In this document: positions 9,501-53,641 of the stretch, piece after piece
Layout: every line of letters starts with the position of its first letter
How positions within the stretch are numbered: the stretch's first letter is position 1
NCBI RefSeq assembly: GCF_964355755.1
Contig: NC_092674.1
Span: 13,020,001 to 13,084,000, forward strand
Length of the DNA stretch: 64,000 nt
Direction: 5' to 3'
Source of the DNA: Antedon mediterranea
Taxonomy: Eukaryota > Animalia > Echinodermata
Translations under genes and position numbers: made by a program
The notes under the pieces: model-generated
Database searches by the model: none
What the model saw: only the letters and a program-made list of their open reading frames with translations
Told to the model about the DNA's origin: nothing

Positions 9501-12500
9501 AAATGTAATTAAATGTATACAGTAAATGTTTACGTTTACATGAAAAACTGGTTACTCGCAAACCGAGCAAATGAATGTGCGTCCATTTTCGGTGCACTCC
9601 ACATGTGACCTTTCTTCACAACCCTCCGCTAAACACTCCACAAATTTCACAATACCAGTCAGTTCCCTTACTTGGTTTTTCTTTTTGAGTGTTGTTTGGC
9701 GTTTTCGACTTTGATTTTGATTTACCTTTACTTTCACTTGCAGATTTCCTTTTCATTATTGCCTCTTTTTCTGGGGTGTCAGTCAGAATTGCAGATTTTA
9801 AAGTTTTTCTGCCATGGCCTTTGTTTTTTCTTGGTGGAGCAACTGGAAATGGGCGAATAGTTTCCGGGCTAAATGGCAATCTTCGGCATGCAGCAGATGT
9901 GGATGGTTCATCCTCTAAAATTTCATTGGGTGTTGACAGTTGACTTGCATTGACGACAGGTGGTGGAATTTCAAAATCATCATTTTCTGCTACTGGCTCG
10001 TTTTCTGTCAATGGCTCATTTTCTGCTACTGGCTCGTTTTCTGCCACTGGCTCATTGTCTGCAATTGACTCATCTTCTGCAATTGGCTCATCTTCTGCTT
10101 CTGGTTGATCAGTCGTATCAGCAGGTGCAAAGTCGAAATCCTCAAAGATGTCTCGGTTAAATGGAAATATTCCACACTTGCGAAACCCATTTGTTATATT
10201 TATAGGCGTATTTGCCTTAGAAAGTGCCTCTTTTACCACACCTGGGATGTCATAGATGGTCATTCTTTCACCGGGATGAGTCTTCATCCATGAATCCTGT
10301 GCAGACCGCAAGTATGTCTTAAATGGACCATATACGCTTCTATCCAGTGGCTGGAGTTTGTGACTCGTGTGGGGTGGAAAGGAAAGTATGACAATACCAT
10401 TTTCCTTAGCAAAGTCAAGGGTTTCTATTGACAAGTGTGGTCCTGCATTGTCCAATAATAATAACAATGGCTTCTCTTTAGATGGCTTTGAAAAATTGGC
10501 GAAATGTTTGATGAAAGCAAGGAAGTCATCTTCTTGCATCCATCCAGATCCATTCGCTCTACCAATGCTTCCTGGTGGTCCATCGCGGATGAAATAGCCC
10601 TGATACTTAACCCGAGGAAATATGAACATAGGTGTTGTTGCATTACCTACTGCGTTTATTGCTTGGCACACAGTAACTAGAACACCTCGCTCAGCACTTA
10701 CAATAGCTCCGACTTGCTTTTCTCCCTTTTTAGCGACAACCTTTGATGGCTTTTGCACTGTTGTTGCCCCGGTCTCGTCCAAATTCCATATATCATTTGG
10801 AGCAAATTTGTGCCTGTTTGAAACATTGTTCCGGTTAAAATTCATAGCTCTCGCTAAACTTGTCGCTTCTGCAGCTCTTATACTAATATTTGGGTGACGC
10901 TTCAAAAAAGAACAAAACCAATCCTTCCCTGCTTTCTGGTTTTCAGTCCAACTTTGTGGCAAATCTACTTCATATGCTATGGCTAGCTCATATGCAAACT
11001 TCCTTACATCATCTGGCGTCAAACCAAAATACATAGCAGCAGCTCTCAATATATATTAAACCAGCGTTTCCTCTTGGTTGTCACTAAACACCTGTCAATT
11101 TCGGACATATCCAACGTGTGTGTCAGTTAATGCTCTTGTCACTTCAAGAGGGGTATTCAAAGCACCATCGGCATCTGAAAATATAGTTTAATGTATACAG
11201 TTAGCTAATAGTAATATTTTAATACCTTATTATTATTTTTATACATTTCAGTATCCATACCTTTCTTTAGTTTGTTGACAAGTTTTTGGAGAGTACTGTA
11301 ATTGACATCAAAGTCTTTTGCCACTGATCTTACAGACAGGTTCTCCAATATCACAATTCGTGCTGCTCGTTTTAAAATTTCTGGGTTTTTCCCCCGTTCG
11401 GTTTTTCTCTTATGAGTTCTAGGCATGACTGTATGTTGATAACTGAAAAATGCAAACCAAAGATCATTAGAATTAACAAAAAATAGGTAGCGCTGGCAGT
11501 CGTATACTAGGCCTTATAGGCTATAGTAGCCTCCATAATTTAATTTTAATAACTATGCCTATAGTATAATAGTAATACAGTAAATTATTTGAAAGATGTT
11601 TATTTATATTTAATACTTACTTAATACTTAATAATAATACTGTAATTTTAGGCTAGGCCTAGTGTAGCAATGTAGTTTAATTTCTTACAATTTACATCTT
11701 TAAATTTCTATTCTGTATAAGAACATTTCTATAGTTAATATTATTGAGTTGAAAAGGTTTAAAACTACATAAATTAACATAAACAATGCACATTATTATC
11801 TTGGGGTTGGTTGCATCACGTGATGGGGTAGGTTGCATCACCTGATTCAACCAACCCCATAGGCACAGACAGCATTAATTCGTGTCATAGAAAAAAAAAA
11901 CGTGGCTCAACCATGGAGGTTTATACCTCCATGGCTCAACCAAGAAGCTTATCATATAATATTTTACCCTAATATATGTGTTATATAAGACTACTAAATA
12001 TTTCAGGAAAAACGATCAGTATAAATAAACAAAACGAAAATCTTTACAAATTTGAAAAATGTACTTACAGGCATAAATCGAGCTGGATTTTTAAAACAAT
12101 AGGTTAATAGTACAGAAGTATTAGACTTTGAGGTAGAAATAAATATGCTAAAGCTGAATTTTTCAGGATAGGTCCCTAATGTTGTCTGAAACAACTTACT
12201 AAAAGTCCCCGGGTTTCCCCGTTGTGCTTCAACCCGATTGGGCCATTTTTCAAAATGGCGGCCATCTTAAATTTATTTACCATTATGCTGACAAATACTC
12301 AGAAGACCCATATTTATATTCACTGTAATGAATAAGTTTAACAAGATGGTCAGAAATGCCTGTTTTGACCTTTGACCCTAAATTTGGATTATCTCAATAT
12401 CTCATCAACGACTGGCCGTAGAGACTACAAAGTTGTCCCAAATTATTTGGAATGCCCAACTTTCTATTCACTTTAATGAAAAAAAAAACAAATTCCTTTA

Positions 12501-18500: not shown

Positions 18501-21500
18501 TGGTACGCTCGCGTACCATCTAGTGCCCACAGATGGTTCTCGAATACACAGTAATTTCAGCGTAACAAAACTGGCGATTTCAAATGTACGTTCCGCAGGA
18601 CTATAATACTATAATTGTCGTATACAGAAACGAATAAATAGACACGATGATTTATGTTGTCAACTAAAATTAGCACCCTGGGAATTACTTCCGAAGGAGA
18701 AACTTATCACAAAATGAGTCCAAATTTTTGATTTGGACTCATTTAAAGAAACCCAATTTGTGTTTTGTATGTAACATTAGGGTTGAGGGATGGGAAAGCG
18801 GATAGGTACAAAGAGGAACAATTTTTAAATATATTCTTTATCCACTCAGTAACGAAATATTTTTTTCATGTTTTATATGCCTATAAATAATATACCTCTA
18901 AATACAGTAAAACATTTGCGATTTAATACTTTGTTAAAACTGTCACTGTCATAATCGATTGAAATATTAAAGTACATGTCACGATACACCACTACGACGT
19001 TTATATTGTTGGTAATTATTAATTAATACAAACGTTGAGAAGGAACTGTCAGTATAAAGTTTATGTGTATATAATAATGTGTTTATATATCTAACAGTAG
19101 AGCCTATCCACAATGTCAGTAATAACGTTTATTTGTATATATTTTTATATTACACCCAACAGTACGAATATTCACAGTAAGAAATGTTCGAATCAAATGA
19201 GGACCAAAAATAGTTAATAGGTATTTACAGTATTGCTCAAGTTTATTCTCATAGGGCCCATATATTTACCTACCGTATGTGTTAAACCAAGGGCTCATAA
19301 ATCTAACTACTTGTGTTAAACCAAACTCTGGCAGACTGAGAGATTGGGATGTTCCATTCATCGCAAATCAATACATTTGTATAATCGTATATTAAATTAT
19401 CAAAATAGTATTTTTTTTACATTATGATGCTGTACTCTAGCTGTTCAACCAGTTTTCAGCTATTAAAAACAATTATCGTAGGAGGAGATAGGAAAATGCG
19501 AAGCCTCCTCGCATTTTTGTGGCGGGTATTTTTCAAGATGGACATCCATTAGACAGTGTATACCACGATCGGAAAACACCCCTATTTGGGGGCAAATCGT
19601 TGAACCTAAATTCGTTTTAATCGTCAATAACTAATTATCTAACTTAATTTAATTAGTAAACAGGGTTACATCAGGTGGTTAAAATCAGTACCGAAAGTAC
19701 GAACCAACTTTATATACCATCGAGTAAAAACATCTAGAAGTAAGGCGCGATTTACCGAATTTTGCCCTTACGTAAATTTATATATAGATGAAAGGGCGTT
19801 GCAAACTACAGAAAGCCACTAATCTCATATCTGTATTGACATCATGCTCTTGTAGTACTCTTTCATGTGCTGTTATACTTTATGCAACATTCTCTTATAC
19901 ACGATGCTGAATGCACCAATGTAAATTATAATACATTGGTGTTTGCGTTTGAACAAGCAGTTACGACTGACAACGTATCCAAAATGTGTTCAGGTGGTAA
20001 CACATTTTGACTGGTAAATTCCAATTTCATTGGTTTCATTTGCCGTTACTGGGAGTGGATAAGGTTTAAAATAAATGTTTTACCAATGTAACAGGTATGC
20101 TTATACCCAATAATTGAATGATTTATCTGCTGAATTTGACTTGAATCTGAGAAACCTTGTGGGACCTATTAAAGTAAAAGCTGGAATGATAAGTGACCAT
20201 GCTATAAATAGATGAGTCACCTCATCCAAGTGGCGGGTAAACCCTTTGCAAAAAAGCCGTATACGATCCGTATACGCTGAAAACGTATACGACGTATACG
20301 GATCGTATACGATTTCACTGTTTACATTATTTCCACTCTGTTGCTCCACAAAGAGTTGGCGTCGTATACGTTTAGCATACGTAACGTATACGTTGTTTAT
20401 TCATGATAAGAATATCGTATACGGGACGTATACGAATCATATACGAACAAACTAGGCCATTTTATAAATTATAATAGCAGTAATGAGTAGAATAGAGCTA
20501 AATAAAACATTTACAGTACTGACTACATGTCATATACCAAGTCCACACATTTTACACGGGTGTGAAAAACGCGTGACTCGCGTGTAATTATGTACTGAAA
20601 GGACAAACTACATTCACTCATGCATGACGGCACTGAGTAATTCAGCTTCAGCGAACTGCTATCGTTTTTATTCGTATGTTTATCAAACCGAGAGACGACG
20701 GATGTGTCGCGTCAAAACAAAAGATCATTTCCTACGTCTCACAAACAATAGAATAGGAAATAATACGTACAGTGATTATAGCTAATACTTTCTTTCTACT
20801 GTAGTTAAAGTGCTATATAATTCGAATTTTATAACACAGAAAAATGTTAACATGATGTTAAAATTAGATCGTGGAAATATTTCCTAATAATTCGACGTCG
20901 AGAAGAAGTACATAGTGTGTTTCGCTGCATAGCGATCTCTATGGTTACTGTCAATGACCTACTTTAAACAACCCTGGATTTTGCGCGTACTACCTTGTTA
21001 CAACAACTTAATTGCATTCATCCACGTCACAGGGCTTCGTGTGGAAAACCGTCTGTGTGTATACTGTGCCGACAACAGCAGTTTAAATTTTAATGTATCC
21101 TTCAAAAGTGAAAAAGAAAACCGTCCCATTGTTAAAAAATAAATCATAAACGTGTGGCAATTTTGTAGTATTGTATTTTGTTTTATTTTGTGAATTGGAT
21201 TCCGTTATTAATATTGATAAACAAAATATTCATAGAGAGGTATTTTCTAAACTGCATTTTTTAATTATTTTATATTGAAATATTGCTCTGATTTTTATTT
21301 TCGTGGGAACGGAATTTCCTGACGGGCGTTTCCAAATAGACGTCACAGAACAATGTTCAATGTATTGTTTTGTGTGTAGTCAAAGGAATCTATTGTTATT
21401 TTTCTCAATATACAGCGTGTTTATAACAAAATAACAGCACCTGCATAAGCTTGTATGGGTGAAATACATTTGTGTGAAACATTGTCTTCGTCTAGTTAAA

Positions 21501-24500
21501 TTGTAATTAAATGAAAATCCAAGTTGCGCTATGTGTGGGTGGGCGCTACGTTAATGAGAAAAGCTAGCTGGCCAATTGTGTACAATATGTTTGTGCATGT
21601 AAAAAGTTTTATGTTCTCCAGCCAATCAGAGCAGGGCTCACAATCTATAAAGTATGAGCATTTCAATGTTCATGTACCAGTTCAGTTTTCTGAATCAACA
21701 AAATGTTTACATCTATGTCAGCTCGTCAACGTTCAAGTATTCCACGCGAGGCGTTAGTTTACTTTCCCGAAGAAGAAAGTTTAAGTATCGTTAAAACAAA
21801 ATTGATCGTCGGTGATGTTTCGTCTGGAGCAGCAGTCGAGGTGCTATGGGAGGGGAATTTGCTCCCTGCAGTCATCCGCAAACTGTCCAATAATCCCCAT
21901 GAATTGCGTGAATTGGAAAGAAAATTGTTGAAGAGAGGGCAAGCCCAAGACACTGACGTGGATAGCGAAGAAGACTCTGATATTGATACAGATGACGACG
22001 AGCAACCAACAACGTCAAAGCGTGCGGCAATGCTAACAAAAACGTCGACACCGAAACCAAAACAGGCTGCAAAAAAGACGAAGGGCAAAGACGTAAGTTG
22101 ATTAAAAAAAATTTTATTCAATAATTTAACTCTGGGGTTGTTAACACACACACCAACACACATTTCAATGCCCATTTTTTTACTCTAAGACTTTAAACCA
22201 AATTTACGATTTATTTTATCTATTGTACAGGTACCCAGGGTGTTTCTTCGCGGGGACGTAACAGCCGATGGTATGAATGTTGAAGAGTCAGATGTAGAAG
22301 AACCAGAACCTGAAGTACCCCCAGCAGTAGATGTGTTTGACAGTATTGCAGGAATGGAACGGCGACTACGCGAGTACATCGACACAAAACATAATGAAGC
22401 CCCTCCTTGGTTGGCCGACCTGACGCAAAATATAAAAAATATCGTCGCTGAACTGATCGTCCAGGAATTTCAAAATAACCGTGTCGCCGCCCCAGCAGAA
22501 CCAGAGATCCTCGACAACTCGGTGGGTGACGACGTACTGCATAGAGATGTCGTTGCAGAAGTAAAAAGGTGGGCCACGTCTGAAAGAAATTTTGCACTCG
22601 GACTTGTAAGAAAACTATTCACCAAGGATGAGATGCGAATGGGTAACGTTAATGGAAAACAGGGCCAGCAGCAACTAGATGTCGTACGAATACAATGGGT
22701 AAAGGATCGAGTAATCAAATCCTATTCCATTCCATTGAATGAACAAACACGAACGTGGAAGCTTTGTGTGTTAGCAATTGACGAGGGATGCCGGCGTCTG
22801 CGAAATCCAAGACCTCGAGCACCACTCCAACCACGAGCACCGATGCAACAAATTCAACCTGCTGAACCAGTCATCGATTTCTAATTATATCTCAAAACAA
22901 ACGGCTCTTTTCAGAGCCACCAAAAAAACAAAAGAGATTTAAAGCATTTAAAATGGCAAACCCCACATAAAAACCAGTCACCTTCAAAACATACCACATT
23001 AAACTCTAAATAATAATTATTATTATAATAATAAATAACATGTTGTGTGAAATAACACACAACATAAAAAGGCATAAACAAATGAAAATTAATATAATAT
23101 TGACAGATTGAATAATTTCAGGTAAATTTGACGTTTCGATCATTTTCGCAATGTTCAAGTATCTGACTTGATAATTATCAAATTAATTAAGAATTGGAAT
23201 TACCATAGTTTTATTTTGATTAAATTTAAGCATGACCGTACAACATTTCTATTCCATTTTATGTTTTCAATCCCAGGTCTTTTATACTGTGTAGACGCGC
23301 TGTTCACGGTCTAGTGGTCACATAAACAAAACGGAACAACCGTACATGCAACACATAACGCTGCAGTCATGATAATAAATAATTTCTATAGCGCACATAT
23401 CCACTAAAAGTGCTCAATAATTGATAAATTATTTGATGTACTTTTCAAGGCTTAGCATTTCTTAAGTTGTTTGAATAAAACTAATTTCCATATTTTAATG
23501 AATGGAATGTATACTATACTTTTATATTGTATGTAAATATGATGAATGACTCGTTTTTGTAAGTGTGTGTCAAAATGTAAAACTTTCAAATCTCTTTTGT
23601 CAATTTATGGCTCTGAAAAGAGCCGTTTGTTTTGAAAATGTTGGTCTTAAACTTCAGTATCCGGAAGCTCTTCCGTTTCGTTCGATCACGACAGGTATCA
23701 CTTTATGAATATGTCGAATGTATCTGCCGCATAATTCAGGTGTCAATGTGGTCTTCCACCAATTTTCTATGCCATTGATAAGTTCCTGTTGATTTTTTGG
23801 TTTTACATGTCGGCGAAGATTATTCTTCAGTTGATGCCAGACGTTTTCAATCGGGTTGAGATCTGGTGATTCGGGTGGAGTCTTCCACCAATTTATCCCA
23901 TGTTCTTCCATATATCGTGTGGATAAATTACTTGTATGTTTAGGATCATTGTCTTGTTGGAACCTATGTGAATCAGGGAACATGTGACGAATATACGGTT
24001 GCAGCGTAGCCTCAAGTATTTCGTTAACATAAAACTCCGCATTCATGTTTCCCCCGAAAATTAGGAAATTGGTGGCACCTCTGAAACTGATTCCCCCCCA
24101 AACGTGAACCTTTACCGGGTGTTTAGCCTTTGGTTTAAGTTTTGGCTCCTCTCCTTTTTTGTAGAAGCACACCTTTCCATGCTGCTCCAGGTGAATGGAA
24201 GTCTCGTCTGTCCATATCACGTCTTCAAACATATCTCCATCATCTAGCATTCGGGTACAAAATTCTAACCGCTTCACCTTATTTACATCGCGAATCATTT
24301 GGCAGTATTTTGGTCCGCTTTTCTTCCATCCTAACTTGTTTCTTCTTCTTCTTATTGTGGATGCTGAAACATTTAGATCAAATACGTCACGGAAGATACC
24401 CGATATTTGGTAGGAAGTTAACTCATCATCATCTCGGTAAAGGTCGTCAATGAAGTGAGCGTGCTCGATAGTGAATTTTGGTTTACGCCCTGATCGAATT

Positions 24501-27500
24501 CTTGCAGCCCATGAACCGGTTTCCTTGTAAGTTTTAATTATTCTCCCCACAGTGTGTCTCTCAACTTCTACCTGCTCTTCTTCCCGGAGAACATCAACAA
24601 TTCTTCTTTGGCGCATGCCCAGCTCGTTCAAACGGACAATCCGTTCTCTCAGATACAATGATAGTTGACCTTTCATTTTTGGACAGTGAATTTTTTATTC
24701 AGAAACACGAACTTTATACCTGTCAAGAACCACGCCCAAATCTTATAAAAGAATTATCCAATCGACGACGTAAACAATCTGATTGGCTGATATCTCCTTC
24801 ACGATGATGCGTGATAAAAAATAGATACCAATTTTGCATATTTTAAATGAATGTTTAAATGTACATATATTTGGTTTTGTTTACATTATCTATTTTGCAT
24901 TACAAATATACATTTATAAATAAATATACGTCGGAAACGTTTAAAATAAAGAGGTTTTTAAAGTTTTTTTCTGGATATCGCGTCAATCATTCAGACACGG
25001 TTCAAAAACTTTGTAATATAATACAGTAATATTATTTTTCATATTAGAATATAATAGAAGTTTCCATCAACTAAAGTATTTTCAATTAAGTTTTTTTTCA
25101 CTTTGGCCGAATTCGAAGCAAAGCCATTTCCGTCATCCAAAACGAACGAATTTAATTGGGCATTCGCAAATAATGTTATTGTTATTTTGAGGTGTATTTT
25201 TTCATAAAAACTTTAGTTGGGTTTTTATGAATATAAATTTTACCTTGTAATTACTAAAATGACTAGAAATTAAATCTGAAAACTTTCCGTTTATACTGTA
25301 GAGTACTGTGGAGTGGAATGCGTTGATTGGTTGGGTCATACCATTTCCTAAGGTCATAACCAACACGCTATGCATGCCGTAGAGTGTATAGTGTGAAATA
25401 GGCCTAAAAATTAGTTACTGTTTTGTTTATGACGGATTATATATTATACTGTACGTTGTTAATTATTAAAAATACTAGAGTAACTGGAAATGTCGCGTTG
25501 TAGGCCTATCGTTTTTCAAACACCCTACTCAACAAGTACAATGAGCCAGTGGAATTGGCCGCCGAGAGCCGTTATCACCTGATGAATAAACACGCAATGA
25601 TTTGTGGCCTTGGACTAATACTCGATTGGGCTAATTTTAATGGAAAAATATATGCATTGCAATTTATACATCAAACAGAACAGAATATTTATTATTAAAC
25701 CAATTCGACATTCGGTGTTTGGATTATTATTTTATTTGGCCTTCTAAAATCATCGGATTCTCATCCTTTGTTTTGGTTTTTTTATGGGTAACAATAGACA
25801 GAAGTAAACTTTGTTACATTACAGTGACAGGCGTGTTCTGGTTACATAATCATGGTCGCGTTCCTTAACACAAATTAAATAAACAACAACTATTCAAGCA
25901 CGCACTGTTTCACGATCGTCATGGACCGTGAATTCCACATTGTAGCAGGAAGTAGCTGACGTCATGGACCACACGCCGATTACAGGTCCGCGGTAATTAC
26001 ACATATTTTACACGCGTGACAAACGCGGTTTATGGTACATGATTTGTAGTCAGTACTGTAAATTGTCATTACAACAAATACGTACGTAGGCTCTGGCCTA
26101 GGGCTAGGCCTCTAGCTAGCACCAGCCATTAGATAGGCCTAGTCTAGTAGTATTAATTATTAATAAGTAGTAGGAGCTAGAACATAAGATCATATTTATT
26201 TCTATATTTATTAGATAGCCTAGGCTACCGATAAAATTCAAACAACGTTTTTCGCAAGTAAATAAAGTACGCTAAACAGGTATACTACTAGGTAGGCCTA
26301 GAAAAAACAACCCATAACAAAAAGTCTTAGTAGTTATAGCTCTATAGCGGTTAGCCTTATAGTCTATCCGGCTTAGTAGATATAGAGCTGTCGCCTATGT
26401 ATCACCTACTAGTAGATAGATATTTGATAGATTTTTTATAGTTGTTAGTAGATTTTTGCCTCATTAGCATATTTCGCGATGATATTAGTAGGCGACACCT
26501 ACTAAATACAACTATGATTAGACTACCAATAATCTATCTAGAATGGATTCTTAATTGGCTATTATTTGGCTTTTAAAAATCTACATTAATTTGCTATTTA
26601 TGGGCTATTAAAAATCTACTAATTAAATGACTATTATTGGGCTATTAAAAATCTGTATAAATTGGCTATTATTTGGCAATTAAAAATCTACATAAAATGG
26701 CTATAATTTGTCTACTTAAAATCTACATTATTTGGCTATTAATATACTATTAAAAATCTACTAAATAATTGGCTATTATTCAACTACTAAAAATCTACAT
26801 TATTTGCCTATTATTGGGCTATTAAAAATCTACATAAAAATGGCTATTATTTGTCTACTAAAAATCTACATTATTTTGCTATTATTGGGCTATTAAAAAT
26901 CTACTTAAAAATGGCTATTATTTGTCTACTAAAAATCTACATTATTTGGCTATTATTGGGCTATTAAAAATCTACATAAAAATGGCTATTATTTGTCTAC
27001 TAAAAATCTACATTATTTGGCTATTATTGGGCTATTAAAAATCTACATAAAAATGGCTATTATTTGTCTACTAAAAATCTACATTATTTGGCTATTATTG
27101 GGCTATTAAAAATCTTCATAAAAATGGCTATTATTTGTCTACTAAAAATCTACATTATTTGGATACTATTGGTCTATTAAAAATCTACTTAAAAATGGCT
27201 ATTATTTGTCTACTAAAAATCTACATTATTTGGCTATTATTGGTCTATTAAAAATCTACTTAAAAATGGCTATTATTTGTCTACTAAAAATCTACATTAT
27301 TTGGCTATTATTGGGCTATTAAAAATCTACACTATTTGGCTATTATTGGGCTGTTAAAAATCTACTTAAAAATGGCTATTATTTGTCTACTAAAAATCTA
27401 CATTATTTGGCTATTATTGGGCTATTAAAAATCTACATTATTTGGCTATTATTGGGCTATTAACAATCTACATATAGATATTATTGGACTATTAAAAATC

Positions 27501-33500: not shown

Positions 33501-36500
33501 ATGTCTCAAAAATGCCCAAAAAGTTCCTGTCTTTAAATGATTCATAACTTTTGAACCAATGTGTGAATTAACTTCTTTTTTTTTTGCATTGCATAAAATG
33601 TAATATGTATTTTAGTAAGGTTATTTATATTGACAGGTAGGTAATTCTGAAATACAACATAAAATATTGTTAAAAAATGTTAAAATGTGAAAAAAAAAAA
33701 TTTTGCGTTAAAACACTGTGTGGGTATTGTTTCTTTTCATCAAATATTATTTTTCGTAAGTATACATTTGTTTAATAATTCTAGTATTTAAAGTTATATT
33801 TATAATCATATTATTTTAATTGATTTTCGAACCGCCAAAAATAAGAATTAAGCCCGTGCTTATTATGTGTTCGATTCCATTTGGAGCGCCGGGCCGAACG
33901 TAGACTCGGCCGCGCCTACTACAAGTTAAGTTATATAGGCCCCTAGCTGCTAACTAAGGTCTAAATAAAAGCCTGACGCTAAATTCTGCCTAAGAAATAT
34001 CGGGAAGAAATTTTTTATTTAACAAAGTAATTACCTCAATGGTATAATTGTAACATGTTTAATTTTATTTCCCTTTCGATTATTCTAACCGAAAGTTGCA
34101 CTTTGAATTGAAATATACGGAATAAAATTTAGGCCTAGAAACAGCGTAGACATACAACGGCAACACAGGCCAAAGCGCGTTTCGGCCGCCTACATAGAAT
34201 GGCTTACGGCCGCTGCATAGCAAAATCAAAGCTTCTTAAATTTCTTCGGTACATTTCTTCCTAACGTACTTGCTTTATATAGTAGATTTATAAATATTCC
34301 ACTTATTAAATAATTTAATAAATCGGTAAAATTGACGTTTCGAAGCAAATATTCCATGAGAGGCGACATTTTTCGACATGCCTCGTGTGCGGCGAAGACT
34401 AGTTCAGAAAATGGAACAGTCCACTGCAGGGGTTATCCAATCATTAATTAACGCGCTAATACATGCATACCATGCACATTGTCTGGGCGACGGTAATTTA
34501 GTAATAAGCGGAGAACTGAATCCCCCCCCGTAAGGAAAATGGTAAACACTGATATTTATGGTAGGGATTATTTTTTTCAGTGGTTGGTCTTGTTGGCCTC
34601 TTCGCACGAGGTCCACGCAAAGTCAAATAAAACGATGTGGTTTATCAAACAGAAATATAAATTAGCTTCAATTCAATACTAAATTAGCCAGATTTTGATA
34701 ATGAGAAAGACTAAAAAATTCAATTTTTATCGTTAAAATTGACATTTGAGGCGGATGTACATAATAATAATAACCGATTTACATATCAAAATAAAGAGTA
34801 TTTAAAGCCTGATAACATGCAACAAAAATTACTCCACCACCTATTATGGACCTCGTGCGATCGTGTTTTGAAAATGGGTAGGTGTTTTCCAAAGTTATTT
34901 TTAGCGCGCGGATTTCGGCTCGCCGGCTTTTGTACCTCATTTTTAAATGGTTCAAAAGTTATCTTTCCCAGCGTAAACAAATAGTTAAATATCATAATAA
35001 ATTATCTAAAAATACAAAAGTCAAAATTGGCATACCACAAGGTAGTGTCTTAGGACCAATTTTATTCATATTATTTATAAATGACCTTCCTCAATATGTT
35101 TACCCAGGATCATGTAGTATTTTTGCTGATGATGTCGTCATCTACACTACTGGAAATGCAATGGAAAATGTCAACATCAAACTGCAAACAATTATGAATA
35201 ACGTTGGAAATTGGTATAATCATAATAAATTACGAGTACATTCTAGTTCTCAAAAAAATAATTGTTTTTCCATACTTTTTCTTTTGAACGTTCTATTACT
35301 GATTGTTGTATTTTTTGTCTTGGATTTTTTAATTTTTGTGTTTTTAAGTTGTTTGCGAGACCATATTGGAAAACAGAAAATTATGATCTTTTTTTTCTGA
35401 ATTATGTTATCCTGCTTAAATATGTTTTAATAAATAAATAAATAAATTTCATAGGGGGTATTTTCATATTGCATTTTGTGTTATAAAATGTCGAGTGTTT
35501 CACCTGCTTTGATAGAAACAAAAATGTAAACATAATATTAGTGTATTGGTAAACACATGATGTACTGCTAACCATACCTAGTGTATTTGTGCACATAATA
35601 CTATAGTATGTGACATTTGAGACCGTTTTATTTGACACGACAAAGCATTTGACCTAAAAAACGTACATTATTATATATCCTAATGTAGTACATTTTGAAT
35701 GTTGACATGGCAGGAGAAACACTAAAAATGTTCCTTCTAACAGAGTTTTTCTCGGGTTACTTGGATTTCGGTGTATTGTTGTATTTATTGTAATGGGCTG
35801 TGTGCTCCATAGTTTAGAAACTTAGATACTATTTTAGTATTACAGGCGGATTAAAAATTTGTTGTTTATTATAAAACATAGACCTTTCAAAATACTAGGC
35901 CTACTTAGTTTATTAATGAAATATATCATAATTATAATATACATTTGGATTAGCTGTACGCGAGTGCAAATAAAACATCTAAATGAATATGTATTTGCAA
36001 AAAGCTAAAATTATGTTTTCGAGAATTTTTATTTTGACCACATACTAAGTGGTTAGTGTAACTTCACATTTATGATATATGAAACATTATGTTGATTAGT
36101 CACCTTAATATGGACCTTTGCCATATACGATGATTTAAAATTCAGAGTTTTAGTATTATAGTATTACAGTTGAACCCCCATGAGCGCTCACCCCCCGAAA
36201 GTTGGCTCCCTTAACGGCCGTACTTTCGAAAAGCCTGTTTGTTCTTCATCTAATTAGTTGACCTCCTGTAAGCAGGGGTAGTAACAAAGTGCGAGGCAGC
36301 GAGGCACGCGAGGAGGGGAAGGCAAGCGTGGCAAGTCAGACATTTATGCGAGGCATCATTTTACCATCATCAAAAAAATGCGAGGCATCATTTTATCATT
36401 TCTCAAAATTGCGAGGCAAGAAATCACCGAAATTGAAGAAGCACGGGCCTAGTAGCCGCTAAGCCCGCTATAGTTCCCTTTTGCACTTGCCTTGTATTTT

Positions 36501-39500
36501 AACTCGACATTTGTTAATCAACTTTATCCTGAATACCACACCTTAGAATTAGTAGAAAAATCACATAAAAGTAGAATAAATACGTTAAATTGATGATTTT
36601 AGAGACCTTTTTCTCGCATACTGTTTGCGAATTTCGCACACTCAATGTTCAATATTTTGGTTTTTATGGAACGCCAAAAGAGCAAAATTAATTAGAGGGC
36701 TAAAAACTCTGTGGAATCCATATATTTAACGCATTATTTAGTAAAAATTACATACAATTTCAATAGATTTTGTCACTGTCAGTAAGCAAAAATGTTACTG
36801 TTGATACTGTACCTTTTAAAGAATAAAATGGAAAAAAAATCTTAATATCTTTAGTAGGCTCATGGTTATGACGTTAAACTACAAACTACACCCAGGTAGA
36901 GTAGGCTGAGGTTGTGTGTGGAGCTAGCCTCTATTAAATGCACACAATAAACAAATTTCACCCACACTCCATGACTGGCGGGTATGGTCGGCGCCACAAA
37001 CCCGAGCAGGCTCCCAGGGTAGGGGGTTACGGATCCATCATCGGCAGCAGGATGATGAGTTGTAACAGCAACAGCCGACAAACTGTCATCTTGATGTTAC
37101 CAGTACAGCGGCAACTGAACAACAGCTGGCGCAACTATCCACAAGTGAGGTGGATACTGCGACAGTGGAAAGCAACGGCGACCTACCACGTGTATGTATT
37201 GCTAATCACTCATTATGACAGAACAATTTTGAAACCAACCCGATATGAGAGTGGATGGTGGAACTGCCAGGCCGGAAGCTCTCAGAGATTTTACTGGCGA
37301 AGAGTCGCATTTGTATAGGATAAAGGCAGGTGCACACCAAAGGCGAAGCAGCGAATTTCGCGTTAAAAGGTGACGCACGCGGCAGGCGATGGACGCTTCC
37401 AGTGTGAACATACAAGCGAACACTGTACGATAGTCGAATTTCAACTTTAACGCGTTGAAAACACACGCAAATTTTCAAATGTTGAACCTTGGTCAACTTT
37501 TTGAGGCGTCGCAAGCGCGGTTCTTGTTCGTCAACCAATCAGAACTCAGGAATATCCCTCATCATCGACGACCGACACCGAACCGACGGAAACAAGGTGG
37601 CTGACGAGTTACAGATGACGGACATGAGCCAAAGACCGCGGGAAACTCGATGCCTTGACGGAGGTAGTGTTGTAACCAAACAAATTCGACTAAGAAACTT
37701 GATACGAATAGCAACATGGAATGTGAGAAGTATGGCAGCTGGAAAACTAGGCACATCAGTGAAGCAACTCACTACAACATAAGTGTTTTGGGTGTAGCAG
37801 AGCACAGGTGGGCAGGACAAGGACATTTTAGACCAGAAGAAGGTGGTATGGTTATCTATTCAGGAAAGGAGATATCAGGCAATGGAGGTGTTGGAATTTA
37901 CCTTAAAGAAAGGACCTCTAAATCTTTGCTGGGATATAATCCAATAAGTGATAGGGTGTTGTCAGTAAGGCTGCATGGCAAACCCATGAAAATTACACTA
38001 TTGTAGGTATATGCCCCAACAATCACTGCAACTCAAGAGGAAGCTGATGAGTTTTATCCATCATAGAATTACCTTATTATACCGTTAATCACTTCTACTT
38101 AAACACCCCTGGACCAACTTAGGACCAATCGTTACCCTCACAGATAACGTAGTGACATATGCAAATGAACCGAAGCCAATATACCCCCAAGTTTCAGAAG
38201 AGCCCAGACACACATCACAGCCACTTCTTCAGAAGCAGACCTACACACCTCACACCTCACCGACAGCATCACTGTATCCTCTGTTCCTGTTTCTATATTG
38301 TATTGTATTGTATTGTATTGAGTATATAACGTATTATTGAATAAACAATGTGTTACTACAGTTAAGCGAGTAAGAGTCTTCATTAGAAGTCAGTACCTCA
38401 ACATAACACTATATTACATGGTGGAAGACCCACATTTTATAAGGAACAGAGTGAGAAAACAGAATAACAAGAAAACAAGAAATAAACACAACAAGACACG
38501 AAGACGAAGACGAAGACAACCATATTTGTTTGAAAGGAGAAAACCAGAAATTTACTTTAGCACAAAAGACAAGCTGAGATTATATTCGAATGAGAGAAGC
38601 AGATTTTTTTTTTTCAAATAAGCATTTAACCGGATCGAGACAAGCAGAATTGTATTTTTCAAATTTGTATTTTAACTGGATCGAGACAAGCAGAATTTTT
38701 AAATTTCGTATAACCGTTGGATGAAGACAAAGAAGATAATCGAGAAAGACACAAGAAGAATCAAAAGGGAAAACAGAAGCAAGAGGACAAGAACTGTTTC
38801 GTTTGGACACTTTCAACTTCACGCCGTTTTTTTTTCGATCGTTTTTTTTAATATTTACCTTTTTTGACCATTTTGAAAATTGATGAACACCTTTCGCATT
38901 TTTTGAATTCGTTGTTTGAACACTTGAACATTGTTGAACACTTTTTGCATTTCCTTTAATTCGTTTTTAATTGGATCCGAAGCATTTGGGGTAAGTCAAA
39001 ACCATTTTGATTTTTGATTTGTAACCTTGATTGAAAAGTGAGAGTTTACATATATATACACTAAATTGTTTTTGATATTTTGATTAATAAAATTATAAAG
39101 TATGGTTGACGTTGATAACGGAGTAATCGTAAATGAGCCCGTCCATCCTCATCCCGTGCCCCACCTAAGACAAACCGATTTCCTTCCCAAAAGATACGAC
39201 GGTTCCATCACCGATCACGAACAATGTAGTGCACACTATTTATCGTTTACCGACTACCTTGAGGCCCACACTTTAGAAAACCCTGAAAATAATGCCCAAT
39301 TAATTAATGTCATAAGTATTTTCAAACGTAGCCTTCAGGGCCAAGCTAGACTCTGGATTGAGGGAAAGCAGTTCGATTCACTGGAATCCTTGAAAACCCA
39401 ATTCATTAACAGGTTGAGTAAAAACAAATCAATCTATGCGCACATAAGAAAATACGATTCAATTACTTATACCACTGGAGACAACGCCGAAAAACACTTA

Positions 39501-42500
39501 ACCAAAATCAAACAGCCGCAGACAGAATTGGATACGCTGACCAGCAGATAAAGAATACATTTTTTTCGACCCTTCCACCAAAATGTAGAGCAGCTGTAGC
39601 CATGTCCACCCCAATCGATGCCACTATTGACAATATCGTACTAATAGCACACAAAATTACCTTGACCTTTCCGTAGATGATTCCACACGGGAAGTTTCAT
39701 TCAACATCAACAAGGAAACAGATAATAGTCTCGAATCGCTCCAACATGAGATAAATTCTCTTAAGTTAGATATAGCCACAACAAAACGATCCCTTAATGA
39801 TGAAACCCGACGCTCGCGTTCCCCCACCCGAAATTATATCCCAAGACGAAACCGAAGCCCAAGCCCATACAAACCCCGATTCCAGACCCCACCGACCCCA
39901 AGATATAGACAACCTCCCCCAACCTGTTATTACTGCGGGAAACCAGGCCACATAGCAAGGCACTGCCGACAACAAAACCGTTCTTACGGAAACTACCCCC
40001 ACCATACCCATACCAACAGTCAAACAATTACTACCCTAGCCACCAGCAGGATTTTTAAAAAGGGGACTAGATGCCGCCTATAATCTGGCCCCCCATACAA
40101 AATATGACAATTTTAAGGCAAAATACTTAGGGAATTCAGATAAGATTGACTTGTTACTTAACGACAGAAATTACGTTAAAGGAAATTTACCAGACGGTAG
40201 AAATGTTTTAACTTTATTTGACAGTGGTTCAACTAGAACTATAATCTCACAATCGTACGTTATTTCCTCACTTTATTTATCGCGTCTAAAGCCAGTTAAA
40301 GTGAACACAACTAAATTTCGATTAGGTAACGGTGACTTCTTATATGCCAACAACTTAGTGCAATTCGAATTATTTATCCAAGGACACAAATTTAAAATTT
40401 CAGCATTAATCGTTAAAAATTTGACAGGTATTGACCTGATATTTGGAACCGAAACATTGTCTGAACTCGACGGTACTTTAAATTTTAAGGAAAACACATT
40501 TCGCATTAGACCAAAGATTTTTAGCTTTCGTCCAGTACACAAGATTTTTCTTAAACCCGGTGAGACTAAAACAGTTAAATCAAAAGGAAGGGTTCCCGCC
40601 TTTGTACGCAATTATGATGTTGTTCTGCATGCAACCACCCATATTTCTAGGATACATAGATACTAATCGAATACTATTGTCCGTGAAAACATGCGCCTCT
40701 CGATAAGAATCGAGCGAGGCTAGCACACACACACGTGCGGTCATGCACTCGATGTTGCGGGTGCGAAACTCATGAATAACAAGTTAGAAAGAACTGACGG
40801 AATGGGGGATTTCCCTTCTTGTTGATGCTGGGCGCGGCCGAGCCTGGTAAGAAAAAACATTGTTTTGATGAAATATAAAGTGCGTCTTATACATCGACGA
40901 TATACAAAATACCGATGTTTTACTCTCAGTTAGAGGGTGCGTCTTATACACAGGTGCGATGTATACACCGAAATATACGGTACACTAAATTCTAAAATAT
41001 TTAATTAGGCCTGCTAACAACGACCTACTGTGTATTAGGCCTTGCCTAGGCTAGTTTAGACACGGGGCCTAACGCGCCCAAACCAGAATTAAAGTGTGAA
41101 ACAAATTTTGGATAGATGTTTGAGCTCGTTGTTTTATTCAGTGTGTTTTGTTACTCTCAAATCCGAATACAATTAACAGAAATGAACATAAAAAAAAAAA
41201 TCCAAATTATTTTCGGATTTGACAAAAGCATATTTGGCAAATCAAAATTGATTACATTCCGATTATTAGGACCTACAATGGTATGAAAACGTAAACTTAC
41301 TGTGAGTTTTTTGCACTTAAATTATAATAGTATGAGGTTAATTAGGCATATTTCAGATAACAGAATATCGGATTTTGTTTCTCAGGTTCACTCTGCAATC
41401 ACGATCTCTTTTCGCGAATTCTAATCTCACATAAATGGGCACTGAAATCATTATTAACAACATGTAAGCTTATACAGTAGGCATATATTTATATTTATTA
41501 ATTTTTTTTTTATTCTTTTACTTGGTTTCATCGTATTAATAGGCCTATTCGTGGATACTATTTAAAAAATACAAACAAAAGGTTTGTATTTTTTTACGAT
41601 GGTTTCGCTGTATACAGTAGGTTGTCTGTTTCTATCGAAACTCTCAAATCAACCTGCGGATGCTTTAAATAATGTTGCTGATGACTTTTATGATGAGTTT
41701 GAAGAATATAATGAATAATTAAAAATGAGGCGTATGCGTGATTGATTTCTATAATATAAATTCTGCAAAAGCGTTGTTTCCAGTTTTCATTGTTTAGGAC
41801 GACATATCAAGTATGTTGTTATACAGGCTATGATTGTTATTATAAAAATATGATATGAAAATAACTATTGTTGTTATGTTGTACCATGTTGTGTTGAAGT
41901 TTAACAGAACAATACATAGTTGTAATTGTTCTGCTAATTTAGTATTATTTATATATAATGTACTGTACAGTACTTTAGGTATGTTATTACCGGTTCGCCC
42001 TTTAAATTTGAAAATTAAACCATTTATTTTAATCACACTGAACTATATAGCACCCCGTATTAATAATGTTTGTAAAACTTACATTGGTTGTAAGATCCAA
42101 ATTAGCACCTGCCTTGAGTAAAATAGTGCAAACATTTGTTTTGCCATTATTTGCAGCAGAATGCAAAGGTGTCCAACCATCCTGAAATATTACAAACATT
42201 ATGTTATAGTATTTTGTCACTTTACAACAAGCTATCTAACTTGTACTAAATCAATTAGATGTCATCATGTGTAATACTAATTCAATTAAATAATTAAATA
42301 TATATATTTAAAGTATGTGCAATCAGTGCTACTAAGCGCATTTGATGATTACATTGGTTAGTTAATTATTGCAATACAAACACATACATATCAAAGTTAA
42401 TTTTTAGGTTGTTAAATTATACTGGTATGTATACTTCTTGTATCTAATTTGTAAACAAAAAACTTTGTAAGGTTAAACCATTGGACAGTGTGTGTGATAT

Positions 42501-45500: not shown

Positions 45501-48500
45501 TGACTCATGGAATGTGCAGTTAGGAAGCCTATTGAATAGTATTGTGTTACAATCTTTGAACTAGGATTTTATGCCATATAATGTTATAATATATACTTTT
45601 GTGATAAACCTTCTTTATCATATCATATCATATATACTTTATTGTCCATTTAAAAACAGAAATGTGATTTGAAAACTGGCAAAATACAAAAATATAAAAT
45701 ACAATTTACAAAAACACACACAAAAAGTTAAGAGGCTAAAAATTGTTAAAATTAGATAAAAAATTATCGGTTACATTTTACCTTTGTACTCTGGAGTTAT
45801 ATAAGTGTATAGCATTAGGTACAAACGAGCACCTAAACCGTTTTGTTTTGGTATTAAGTGCACGTAGTCTTATGCCAGAATTCATGAGAGCAAATTGTTT
45901 GTGAAGAGGATGTGTTTCATCATCAATGATACTTTTTACTTTTTTTAACACATTTTCTTTATACAAGGATTCAACATCAGGTAAGTGCTCTCCTACTAGT
46001 CTAATTGCTCTATTTCCTATTCGATTAAGTTTAATTTTATCTTTTTGCATTGTATTACCATAAAAACAAACATTACAAAAAAGTATTACACTGAGAATTA
46101 CAGAGTTATAAAACAATTTAAGTATAGTTTTGTCAATTTGTAGGTACTTCATTTTTCTTAAAATAAACATCCTTTGGTTGGCTTTGCATGTGGCTTTATT
46201 TACATTATTTATCCAATTTAGCTTATTGTCAATTATACAACCCAGATATTTGTACTCATTTACTACTTCAATCTCATTTTCATTTATAATCAGAGGTTCT
46301 AAGGGTTCTTTAATTTTCCTAAAATCAATTTGCATTTCTTTTGTTTTCTTTATGTTTAGTTTCAGGTTGTTATTGCAGCACCAGTGATAAAAATCACATC
46401 CTAGTTGTCTATAGCTTGTTTCATCATTGCCAGTAATGTATCCAGTGATGACTGTGTCATCTGCATATTTTACTATACAACATTCATTTGAATTGGCTCT
46501 GAAACTGCTGGTGAACAGTGAAAACAACATTGGGGAGATAACAGACCCTTGTGGCGTGCCAATGCTAACAGTTCTTTTATCAGATAAAATACCGTTTAGT
46601 TTAACATACTGGAACCTTTTTGTTAAGAAATTATATATCCATGAAGTCAATGTGTCGTTTACGTTCATTTCTTTAAGTTTGCGTACTAATGAACAAAATA
46701 TGTTTAGATAGATTTAGTAATGTTTAGTTTATAGGAGATAGTTTCTAGTTAACAGTTTGTATAAAATAGTTCATCCTACAGTTCACACTTGATTAATTTG
46801 TACACACGAGGCTACCATGCTCGTGATAGATCGTCATGTAGTGCGCCCTCTATTTATCATACAAAATGGCTGCGCCCATGGATTTGTTATTGTTTATATA
46901 TTTTACACAAACCTAAGATTATAACTCCTTGATTCAATGAATAGACTAAGTTTAGTATTCAAATAGTGTGAGTAAATTCCAACATGCATTTATTCTAGTA
47001 ATATAATAGTAATATTCAGGCACTTATGATGCAATTGTGTAGGTAATTAATTAGGTATTTGTATACTCTAACAAAGTATACAGAAGCTGTTTAGGTAGAC
47101 GTGCCGTTTGATGTAATAGTCGCAGTTCTCAGAGAGAATCCTTTTTATTAGAGTCGCCTGTTAAGTTGAGGTCGTTACTAAGAATTGGCTTGTATTTTAG
47201 AATATTATTTACTTTTGTTTCTCATTGTATTTATTTTGTGGTTTTCAGGACCATACTGATCTCTATTGTTATGCTAAAAACAAATTAAAACCAAATACAC
47301 CACCGGACCGTGAGAAAAGGCGTGTTTTTCCTTTTGTGTTGTCGTCCACATCCTTACATAGTAATGAGAAATATACAAACAATGATGTTTTTGTGATGTC
47401 GGTGGTGGGTGTTAGGTTTGTAATGTACGTGGCGGGGCGTTTATTAGAGGGTGGAGGTTGGATATTCCATTATTATTGGGGGAGAGGGCATTTATTCAAA
47501 TAAATGCGGTAGGCCTAATTGGTATACCGTAAATCTTTTAATAGGAACCCTGGGTTATTATTCTTTGAATGTTTTTTAGGGTGGGTTACTATTATTAGAA
47601 GGAGGGTTACTATTAGAGTAGTGGGTCACGATTACTAATCTTAAATTAGGTACCTGAAAATAGTAACCCACCCCCAACATTTCCTGTCAGCAAAATAATA
47701 AAACAGTACGAATAAACTAGCCTAGAATTTCCATGCACGCGTATCCTAGGCATAAACACATTTTCGACGTTAAAAAAAATTACAGCGAAAGCTAGTAGTA
47801 GTGTAATTGTGTATAAAATTACATTTTTGAGTAACATCAGGGGCCACCATGTGCATAAACAAGTCTGGAAACCAATCACAGGGGAATGGATACAATGTCA
47901 TAAAGATGATAGAGGTGTCTACAAAGGAATTCATGAAGAGGCACTGTTGGTTGGACATGTCCAAAATGAATTATCAAGAATTCTTGCTGGATTTTTAAAA
48001 TTGAATGATAGTCATATTAACGTAGAAGTAATGGGGAAGATAGTCAGCGAACACGGTCTCTTGGTCGCTATGTCCTATGTCGCTACTTGTGGCCGAAAAC
48101 AAATCGAAAACAAATATTGATTGATGAACTGTCAAGGGGATGTATTAAAATATCCTTATTTTGAACTAAAAATGGAACAATAATTGAGACTAAGCTGAAG
48201 TACATACAAATAAGGATCATCGACATAATCACATTGTAAAAAATGGCGTTTTTAAGGAATAAATTGTGTTAAAACCAAAATAAATTTGATTTTAGTGTCA
48301 TTTTGTCAATAGTTGTTGTGACTAGGGGGTTATTATTGGAGTAGTGGGTTCTTATTATAGATTGAATTATAGGTGGGTTACTATTAGAAGATTTACGGTA
48401 TTTACTTTAAATCAAACATCAAATAATGACAATCATCAATGGGTCATTAATAAAAAACACGTTTTAAATGGCTTGCAACATGGGTCAAAGCACCCTGGGT

Positions 48501-52508: not shown

Positions 52509-53641
52509 TTGCAATTGAGATTAGAAGCAGATATAGAGCAAAAGAAAATAGAATCACAAGAAAGAGTGAAAATGATGGAATTAGAAAATAGGTCTAGCTA
52601 CAGTAATGCTAGGAATATAGTAGATGAAATGAAGGTAAAGGTTCCTACTTTGAAGGAATCAGATGATATTGATATATATTTTAGAACATTTGAACACTTG
52701 GCAGAAGCCACAGGTTGGGATAAGAATACGTGGTCCGCTAGGTTTAGCACCTGAACTGTCTGGTAAAGCTAGGACAGCATATGCATCCTTAACCGTAAAA
52801 GAATGTGTAGATTATGATACCTTAAAGAAGGCAATCTTAGAAAAGTATGATGTGTCCGCAGAGACCTACAGATTTAAATTTAGAAATTCAAACAGAGTTA
52901 AAGATATGTCCATCAGGGAATGGCTGAATGAGCTCTCCCATTATTTAAAATGTTGGATGAAATGGGCTAATGTAAAAGAAGATGATGCTGCAGGCATTAT
53001 TGAAATGATTATAATGGAACAGGCACTTGATAAAATGCCTGAAGATCTGAGGTTTATCTTAGAGATAAACAAGTAAATAAGAGCGATGATATGGCTATGA
53101 TAGCCGATGATTATATAGCTAATAGAGGTGGCCGTGGCTACTGGAATGCCGTAAATTCTGAAAATAAGCCTACGTATTATAAGGGCCAAGAAAATAGTAA
53201 ACCTAAGAATAGTACGACTCAGAATAACCCTGGAGCTAGGCAGCAAGGATACAATAGGTATCGCGGAAGGGGAGGCAAATTCCATAACTATGAATGGAAT
53301 GGATTAATGGCCTATGCTTTAATTGTAAGGAGAAGGGACATAAAATAGGGGATTGTCCTAAGATGGTAGCAAAAGGAAAGACTAGTGACACTAAGAAGGG
53401 CCCGAATGTGAAAGATGGCTTAAGATGTGAAGGACTAAAATCAGATAGACCCCAAGTAGTTATAGATAGTGTAGAAAATAAAATGGAGAAATGTACAATA
53501 CCAGGAAAATTAGAAGGACAGGATATAACTATGCTAAGAGACTCGGGATGTACCCAGTCAGCTTATAAGGAAAGTCTAGTGCCTAACAAATGTTACTTGC
53601 CAGGAAAATGGGTTACGGAGGCGATATTACCGTCCCCTTAG
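52509..53641 (+). pseudogene. gag (SCAN-related capsid, CCHC knuckle) and protease, split by frameshifts/stops
   Basis: DIDIYFRTFE..A...W, LSGKARTAY, YRFKFR; CFNCKEKGHKIGDC; LRDSGCTQS. Confidence 0.88.

Follow-up and report, generated by a model that had tools for sequence, protein, structure and literature searches.

We found a transposon of an unusual composition in a stretch of 64,000 nucleotides of the feather star Antedon mediterranea (RefSeq assembly GCF_964355755.1, contig NC_092674.1, positions 13,020,001 to 13,084,000 of the forward strand; hereafter, the window). It is a Tc1 element of the DD34E type with two genes, one coding for the transposase and the other for a conserved Tudor-BEN partner protein, and both genes carry histone-type mRNA 3ʹ ends. 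This combination is, in our view, new, and the element itself is well supported. The histone-type ends on both genes are its most unusual feature; together with the promoter words common to the two genes, they were missed in a preliminary description of the window, made from the sequence alone, which had noticed the transposon and its BEN gene. The explanation that we consider best, and hold to be probable, is that both mRNAs are cut by the SLBP/U7 machinery, are not polyadenylated, and are made and translated mainly during DNA replication. The window element would then be the most complete case of such a transposon, with both genes built like histone genes.

The Rfam scan of the window at a cut-off of 34 bits gave only two matches, both to the histone 3ʹ untranslated region stem-loop (RF00032). 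Each was located on the sense strand behind one of the two genes, 18 nt from the stop codon in the BEN gene and 29 nt in the transposase gene. These spacings fit the metazoan histone median of 30 nt given in a survey of histone 3ʹ ends (10.64898/2026.10.14.759114). The hairpins have a 6-bp stem, a 4-nt loop, G-C at the second pair, U at the third loop position and AAAC/ACCA flanks, and the transposase copy has ATAA 3ʹ of the hairpin. A purine-rich element resembling the histone downstream element (HDE), AAAAGAGATTT, starts 11 nt (BEN) or 10 nt (transposase) 3ʹ of the hairpin. Because both 3ʹ regions carry the RF00032 stem-loop, they are linked by a perfect inverted repeat of 28 identical bases. 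The two genes are convergent and 770 bp apart.

Contigs from sequencing runs of the host contained other loci in which the hairpin is followed by AAAGAGATTTG. At three loose ends on the upstream side, read by eye, a stop codon preceded the hairpin by 33-35 nt; the termini were GG-stop, KAK-stop and TK-stop, which would fit histones. The comparison suggests, indirectly, that the HDE-like element of the transposon resembles that of these probable histone loci.

The conservation of the stem-loop was analyzed among relatives of the transposase. The window transposase was aligned with 38 of 1,189 homologues. For the tree, 25 loci from host-derived contigs in metagenome-assembled genomes and the best 80 of 545 metagenome matches were combined into 105 loci; 13 of them were excluded with fewer than 200 residues covered, and 92 entered the tree. 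The window element and 84 relatives formed a clade of 85 rows with full support (SH-aLRT 100) against eight short one-gene Tc1-like rows on long branches, in a tree that contained no named reference Tc1 families. Clustering of the relatives in this clade at 85% identity gave 45 families. The hosts of the relatives are probably corals and sponges.

A stem-loop was present 3ʹ of the transposase in 17 of the 45 families, at a distance of 9-103 nt and always on the sense strand. The consensus was near-invariant, AAAC GGCTCYTTTAGGAGCC ACCA, followed 12-14 nt behind by AAAGTCA(A)TGAYCAAC. The transposases of these relatives were only about 50% identical to that of the window. When 19 element and histone ends were compared, 114 of 114 pair cells paired and four of the six pairs varied on both sides, a measure inflated by relatedness. 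In the viral contigs searched, neither relatives nor a matching hairpin pattern turned up. Judging from these sequences, the stem-loop is a lineage trait and not a universal one. Six loci (L035, L036, L050, L053, L055 and L076) had two stem-loops 73 nt apart 3ʹ of the transposase, with the downstream motif at the second only.

Both a Tc1 relative (L001) and a histone repeat of five genes and 6.6 kb (L136, contig G001:C7), with H1, H3, H4, H2B and H2A, are present in assembly G001. The histone ends of the repeat consist of GGCCYTTTTCARGGCC or close variants, then TTTTCGAAAAGAAG, unlike the transposon variant. An identity of the two signals, transposon and histone, across all hosts was rejected by this assembly. 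The six other top RF00032 matches in G001 were all of the transposon variant. They belonged to the Tc1 relative, a broken MULE transposase, two pogo-type elements with terminal inverted repeats (TIRs), a decayed pogo-like element and a small TIR element. The MULE locus (L138:6577-8887, contig G001:C369; Pfam MULE, E = 4.9e-9) also codes for a PHD finger, and its stem-loop and downstream motif are located about 30-40 nt behind the MULE stop, as in the Tc1 relatives. Four loci (L137:521-1552, L140:3922-4915, L141:1713-3104 and L139:833-1416) are non-autonomous TIR elements with an internal transposon-type stem-loop. From their motifs, we take three of the four to be of the pogo type, and the open reading frame (ORF) in front of the stem-loop in L137 and L140 to be HIRAN-like.

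Several transposon classes in G001 thus share one histone-type signal distinct from that of the core histone cluster. The balance tilts slightly toward the wider proposal that at least three superfamilies of animal DNA transposons (Tc1, pogo and MULE) adopted the histone 3ʹ-end pathway, which would give them non-polyadenylated messages for transposases and helper genes, replication-coupled or maternally stored, in some hosts via a signal distinct from that of core histones. The difference in hairpin and HDE within G001 may point to two U7 small nuclear RNAs (snRNAs). The search for U7 (RF00066) in five assemblies was blank, and so was the control search.

These observations also bear on another reading, in which the ends lead the messages into a germline or maternal branch, by oocyte SLBP2 storage or by a second U7, so that they are stored in the egg and translated in the early embryo, with no timing to somatic S phase. 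The three transposon classes of G001 share a hairpin and motif unlike the core histone repeat, as if another U7 or SLBP read them, and an X-box-like word, presumably for RFX, is present in the transposase promoter of many stem-loop relatives. Oocyte-specific Slbp2 of zebrafish is described as storing maternal histone mRNA (PMC6239174). In the window host, however, the signal resembles that of the probable histone genes at the loose ends, no second U7 came out of the blank search and its blank control, and the G001 histone contig might derive from another animal in the sample. We consider the maternal branch unlikely.

It is rather improbable that the signals are precise terminators, which would prevent convergent overlap and evade poly(A)-linked surveillance, double-stranded RNA and small-RNA silencing, with timing as a side effect. 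The arrangement in the window, two genes converging 770 bp apart with the signal on both, agrees with such a role, and convergent relatives without the hairpin show other solutions. The hairpin is kept, however, where the BEN gene is upstream-divergent (L026, L095) or tandem (L037, L052), and behind the MULE transposase, so convergence does not explain the hairpin. Still less probable, and in our judgement very much so, is that the hairpins are left over, without function, from captured histone-gene 3ʹ ends, or are palindromes with another role at the DNA level. Although this would agree with the presence of the stem-loop in only 17 of 45 families and with the tandem duplicate hairpins of some relatives, the position, the strand, the 5ʹ AAAC, the 3ʹ ACCA and the motif spacing are retained in 17 families and in three superfamilies even as the adjoining spacer drifts, and the two copies in the window share the 28 identical bases but little else beyond the downstream motif.

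The boundaries of the element given in the preliminary description (20514..26058, 5,545 bp) were borne out by TIRs and a TA target-site duplication (TSD). The 26-bp TIRs are identical at 23 of 26 bases, including all 14 of the outer 14. An empty site, in which 20511 is joined to 26059, was present in contigs from three of four public runs.

The transposase gene is uninterrupted, as had been described, and its product matched DDE_3 of Pfam (E = 5.7e-23) and an N-terminal paired-like helix-turn-helix (HTH). The catalytic residues are D157, D242 and E277, and 34 residues separate the second D from the E, which confirmed the DD34E type; all three were invariant across 39 aligned sequences. An assignment to L31/DD37E was rejected by this triad, and one to Harbinger by the Tc1-type transposase, the TA TSD and the BEN partner.

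The predicted promoters of the two genes share CAGCCAATCAGA, which has only two occurrences in the window, as well as TATAAAGT and TTTCTGAAT. As a benchmark for chance, random pairs of 250-nt sequences shared a 12-mer in 71 of 5,000 trials. A conserved word similar to CCATAGCAAC was observed about 40-70 nt before the start codon, upstream of the transposase, in L037, L038, L039, L041, L053 and L086; we take it to resemble the X-box of RFX.

The partner gene is open over its two predicted exons, from the ATG at 21703 to the stop at 22884, and codes for 347 aa. Its identity as a BEN gene held when exon 2 was checked against Pfam (25.3 bits against a cut-off of 23.2), and a profile of the domain matched the solved chains of BEND3 (E = 5.6e-11) and BANP (E = 2.7e-7). 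Both proteins are reported to bind CG-containing motifs (PMC8887127). A contig of organism B had a deletion within the predicted intron.

The N-terminal domain of the partner, overlooked in the preliminary description, is modelled as a small beta-barrel (pLDDT 80.8) and is probably Tudor-like. The top three structural matches of the model were all Tudor domains (Z 5.8-8.1), the best Foldseek E-value being a moderate 0.011: the ARID4B Tudor (Z 8.1, root-mean-square deviation (rmsd) 7.5, 63 residues aligned), RBBP1 (Z 7.0, rmsd 3.1) and JMJD2C (Z 5.8, rmsd 2.0). The domain had no sequence matches in Pfam or PDB. Its Atlas matches were unnamed eukaryotic clusters (0.90-0.93), and a weak search for longer proteins with the domain gave one unnamed match.

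We next consider whether the BEN gene belongs to the element. In the relatives, the BEN and N-terminal domains were detected with our own profiles. Of the 45 families, 19 have one or the other next to the transposase, as do 14 of the 16 with at least 4 kb of flank; the placement is upstream-divergent, downstream-convergent or tandem. Five of seven complete TIR-bounded relatives contain the partner and two do not. The five are 4.4-8.8 kb long; one match is weak (E = 0.01), one has the N-terminal domain only, and two are copies within a single family. In both complete relatives that lack the partner gene, the transposase is broken. Pfam confirmed BEN in three of seven locus ORFs of relatives that were submitted, and all three Pfam BEN matches in the five searched assemblies were within about 7 kb of a related transposase.

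Purifying selection on the partner was indicated by ratios of non-synonymous to synonymous substitution (dN/dS) between families of 0.07-0.37, namely 0.07-0.37 for the N-terminal exon (6 of 10 pairs unsaturated) and 0.12-0.17 for BEN (2 of 6); the transposase had 0.05-0.11 (4 of 10). Neutral evolution of BEN is not what is seen between families, while the differences within the genome do look neutral. BEN and transposase identities correlated (Mantel rho 0.44, p = 0.0002, n = 17), in agreement with co-divergence. No TIR/TSD pair of its own was present among the repeats listed around the gene, and a nested independent insertion was rejected. These results support, at the level of sequence comparison, that BEN is an integral partner, as the preliminary description had proposed, and an old one, not chance cargo. 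In an observation apart from these, L007:1054-5478 (-) has, on the upstream side of a related transposase, an ORF of 1,475 aa with a BEN-like C-terminal end; Pfam gave no match to it.

The opposite view, that the BEN gene is neutral cargo from host gene capture or nested insertion, is largely refuted, and we give it hardly any weight. The nearest named protein, P0001, is a 250-aa protein of Antedon mediterranea and was the sole match to exon 2 among 296 candidates; its BEN domain is 69% identical to that of the element, with no likeness outside the domain, and it is possibly a domesticated copy or the donor. Such a host relative would be in line with cargo, as would the differences in gene position and orientation among families, the two complete relatives without BEN and the neutral-looking differences within the genome. 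Against it stand the presence of BEN in 14 of 16 long-flank families, the dN/dS values, the co-divergence with the transposase, the broken transposases of both BEN-less elements, and the promoter and 3ʹ signals that the BEN gene has in common with the transposase gene.

The element ends contain candidate sites for the partner. The exact subterminal sequence CGCGTGTAA, pointed out in the preliminary description, does occur twice in the window, at 20579 and 26008, one near each element end. The outermost 100 bp at the two ends together contain five CGCG, where 0.21 would be expected, a post hoc count. Significant subterminal 7-mer arrays were found in five of six complete relatives tested, versus none of five one-gene Tc1 elements. 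It is conceivable, at a little under even chances, that the partner binds element-specific subterminal repeats via BEN and chromatin via the Tudor-like domain, and keeps the ends open or hands them to the transposase. The roles suggested for BEN in the preliminary description, namely anti-silencing, autoregulation or target choice, are putative.

Since histone-type ends are found on both genes, it is likely that the element makes use of the histone pathway so that its expression coincides with replication. Both mRNAs would be cut 3ʹ of the hairpin by the U7 small nuclear ribonucleoprotein and not polyadenylated, SLBP would carry them, and expression would be timed to S phase or early embryos. 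It is highly likely that the signals are used, and it is fairly likely that they restrict the transposase to S phase or cleaving embryos, with sister repair or jumping ahead of the fork leading to a net gain of copies. Jumping ahead of the replication fork is a route to copy gain, and by it the element would obtain an extra copy; alternatively, the transposase would be active while the sister chromatid is present, and repair from the sister would restore the excised copy. The partner would be co-expressed, with BEN on the element ends and the Tudor-like domain reading chromatin. Histone mRNAs are reported to rise 35-fold in S phase and to be cleared afterwards (PMC5100578), and sister-chromatid repair is described as regenerating a transposon copy (PMC2874221).

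Several observations weigh against this proposal. Of the 45 families, 23 had at least 130 nt of flank but no stem-loop, all sponge-type families included (five had too short a flank), so Tc1-BEN elements persist without it. When 20 loci were tested, the Rfam cut-off was passed by 5 of 14 pattern-positive loci. The hairpin was found at none of 21 BEN-gene ends of relatives; the BEN stem-loop was seen in the window family only and was rejected as a clade-wide trait. In G001, the variant and motif are unlike those of all five histone genes, so ordinary S-phase U7 may not be reading the coral-type signal. The histone reading of the loose ends in the host runs was made from 8-13 letters each, with upstream and downstream ends not on one contig. 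The BEN gene has a predicted intron, while the transposase gene is intronless, as core histone genes are; H2A.X.1 of Hydractinia is reported with two exons and a stem-loop (PMC5011920). AATAAA is present at 23030 and 23215, downstream of both hairpins. No enrichment of CCAAT was seen among the stem-loop relatives (12 of 30 versus 6 of 16), and a CCAAT/TATA promoter tied to the stem-loop across the clade was rejected by this test. The subterminal 7-mer array of the window element was not significant, with 53 of 200 shuffles as high. Of 16 BEN differences listed from sibling contigs, among 40 of 242 rows, 11 were non-synonymous, which looks like neutral drift within the genome.

The coordinates of the features are given in Table 1.

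Table 1. Features of the two-gene Tc1 element, in positions of the window.
Feature	Position	Strand	Basis
Left TA target-site duplication	20512..20513	.	sequence and empty site
Left TIR, 26 bp	20514..20539	+	repeat comparison
Left subterminal CGCG-core motifs, candidate BEN sites	20552..20587	.	motif count, post hoc
Predicted BEN-gene promoter: CAGCCAATCAGA (CCAAT) and TATAAAGT	21619..21653	+	words common to transposase promoter
Partner exon 1, 130 aa: Tudor-like at about aa 13-64, then acidic/basic low-complexity stretch	21703..22092	+	profiles, model
Predicted intron, 138 bp, phase 0, GT-AG, frame kept	22093..22230	+	sequence-predicted
Partner exon 2, 217 aa; BEN domain at about 22591-22797	22231..22884	+	Pfam, profile
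BEN 3ʹ end: stem-loop 22903-22918, ACCA, HDE-like AAAAGAGATTT 22930-22940	22898..22942	+	RF00032, 40.6 bits, E = 1.6e-8
Transposase 3ʹ end: stem-loop 23624-23609, HDE-like AAAAGAGATTT 23598-23588	23585..23629	-	RF00032, 38.0 bits, E = 1.5e-7
Tc1 DD34E transposase, 340 aa, intronless, open	23654..24676	-	ORF list, Pfam, alignment
Predicted transposase promoter: CAGCCAATCAGA 24789-24778, TATAAAGT 24718-24711	24711..24789	-	shared words
Right subterminal CGCG-core motifs, candidate BEN sites	25989..26027	.	motif count
Right TIR	26033..26058	-	repeat comparison
Right TA target-site duplication	26059..26060	.	sequence

Copies of the element were also seen in contigs of the runs, whose depths do not give copy numbers and were not read in that way. 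The flanks of the element are themselves a high-depth repeat. This target repeat (20256-20474 and 26059-26300) is rich in CGTATACG palindromes and nested inverted repeats. The element ends (20514-20658 and 25957-26058) were far deeper than the interior, and a different sequence joins at 25957; the deep ends with this joint probably represent an abundant non-autonomous derivative. A short high-depth repeat at 23381-23417, between the two 3ʹ ends, breaks the contigs. Contigs of a second organism included the transposase half (23387-25935) as well as BEN exon 2 (22211-22808), and in one of them the left end was joined to the region where BEN starts; the full-length element was spanned by no contig of the runs. 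Sibling contigs in runs X1 and X8 differed at two adjacent bases in transposase codon 104. If the unlisted first base is unchanged, this codon reads as a stop, and many sibling copies may be dead.

The pogo and long terminal repeat elements of the window had been called broken in the preliminary description. This was followed in the ORF list only, where it agrees with a pogo ORF (9616-11055) that has no start at its 5ʹ end and with fragmented Gypsy-like ORFs. By their motifs, the sequences at 9616-11055, 34882-35400, 39099-40666, 45778-46713 and 53587-56858 were named as a pogo-like transposase, two LINE reverse-transcriptase fragments and two Gypsy-like remnants. The Rfam scan found no histone stem-loop in these pogo-like, LINE and Gypsy-like remnants of the 64-kb window.

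Histone-like hairpins behind non-histone ORFs were observed in two further assemblies. L110 and its neighbours (G005:C127) form a tandem repeat of 2.14 kb with at least seven units, in which a 135-aa non-histone ORF ends 31 nt before a histone-like hairpin and a purine-rich element. In G004, a 297-aa non-histone ORF (L114:2-965) ends 29 nt before the hairpin GGTCCTTTTCGGGACC, and L108 of the same assembly has a similar hairpin.

If the proposal is true, the transposase mRNA would be a natural non-histone client of SLBP and U7, and the question of how a non-replicative cut-and-paste element jumps during replication and gains copies would have an answer. Poly(A)-selected RNA-seq would miss such mRNAs, and counts of transposon activity in these animals may be too low. 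A widespread lineage of two-gene Tc1 elements is defined by the conserved Tudor-BEN partner, which also touches on the question of a transposon origin for host BEN factors. Zebrafish CACTA elements may have histone-like ends, of which the literature matches listed gave no description, so priority is not assured. Among the literature matches listed, in a coverage that leaves out most subscription journals and Repbase Reports, neither a transposon with a histone stem-loop nor a BEN gene or second ORF in a Tc1 element was described. The main text of the 2026 survey of histone 3ʹ ends does not contain 'transpos', and its supplements could bear on the point (10.64898/2026.10.14.759114).

Typical elements of the IS630-Tc1-mariner (ITm) group are described as 1-3 kb long with a single ORF (10.1101/656579). 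That typical Tc1 elements are short with one ORF, as the preliminary description had said, agreed with five complete one-gene Tc1 elements of 1.3-1.6 kb. Like Tc1 elements of the DD34E type, the window element has a TA TSD, TIRs starting with CAGT, and one 340-aa transposase with paired-like HTH and DDE_3. Unlike them, it is 5.5 kb long, has the conserved Tudor-BEN partner as a second gene, and carries 3ʹ ends of the histone type; a short length with one ORF is typical of the family but does not define it. In the tree, the eight outgroup rows lack both the partner gene and such ends.

L31 (DD37E) ITm elements carry two ORFs. TLEWI is described as an intron-split ITm element of the DD36E type (10.1101/656579). 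As compared by description only, the window element is like both in being a marine-invertebrate ITm element that departs from the single-ORF plan, and is set apart from them, again by descriptions, by its DD34E triad, intronless transposase and intact TIRs.

TnpA of En/Spm is a DNA-binding helper of a two-gene DNA transposon, and PIF/Harbinger elements have a Harbinger transposase, a 3-bp TSD and a Myb/SANT ORF1. The window element is like PIF/Harbinger, with its ORF1 and transposase (PMC2836001), in having a second element-encoded DNA-binding protein, here predicted, and its relatives have subterminal arrays. It differs from PIF/Harbinger and En/Spm in the transposase superfamily, and its helper is Tudor-like and BEN instead of Myb/SANT. 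We regard the Harbinger analogy as a lead. Compared with BEND3 and BANP, and with the Tudor domains of ARID4A/B and KDM4, the partner has a similar BEN profile and a modelled N-terminal fold that may be similar, the fold match being moderate; it differs from these host proteins in being encoded by a transposon, and its DNA binding and methyl-lysine reading are putative.

Apart from histone mRNAs, no cellular mRNAs are known to have a stem-loop end of this kind, according to a published description (PMC5100578). The window element resembles metazoan replication-dependent histone genes in its 16-nt hairpin above the Rfam cut-off, the AAAC/ACCA flanks, the HDE-like element, the closeness to the stop codon, and a predicted promoter with CCAAT and TATA, while its signal sits on non-histone transposon genes, one of them with a predicted intron. 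Host U7 snRNA is reported to repress human LTR12 through HDE-like motifs, with no stem-loop 3ʹ end in that description (PMC11417402). The window element likewise links a U7-type signal to a mobile element, but unlike LTR12, its coding genes end in a full hairpin and HDE.

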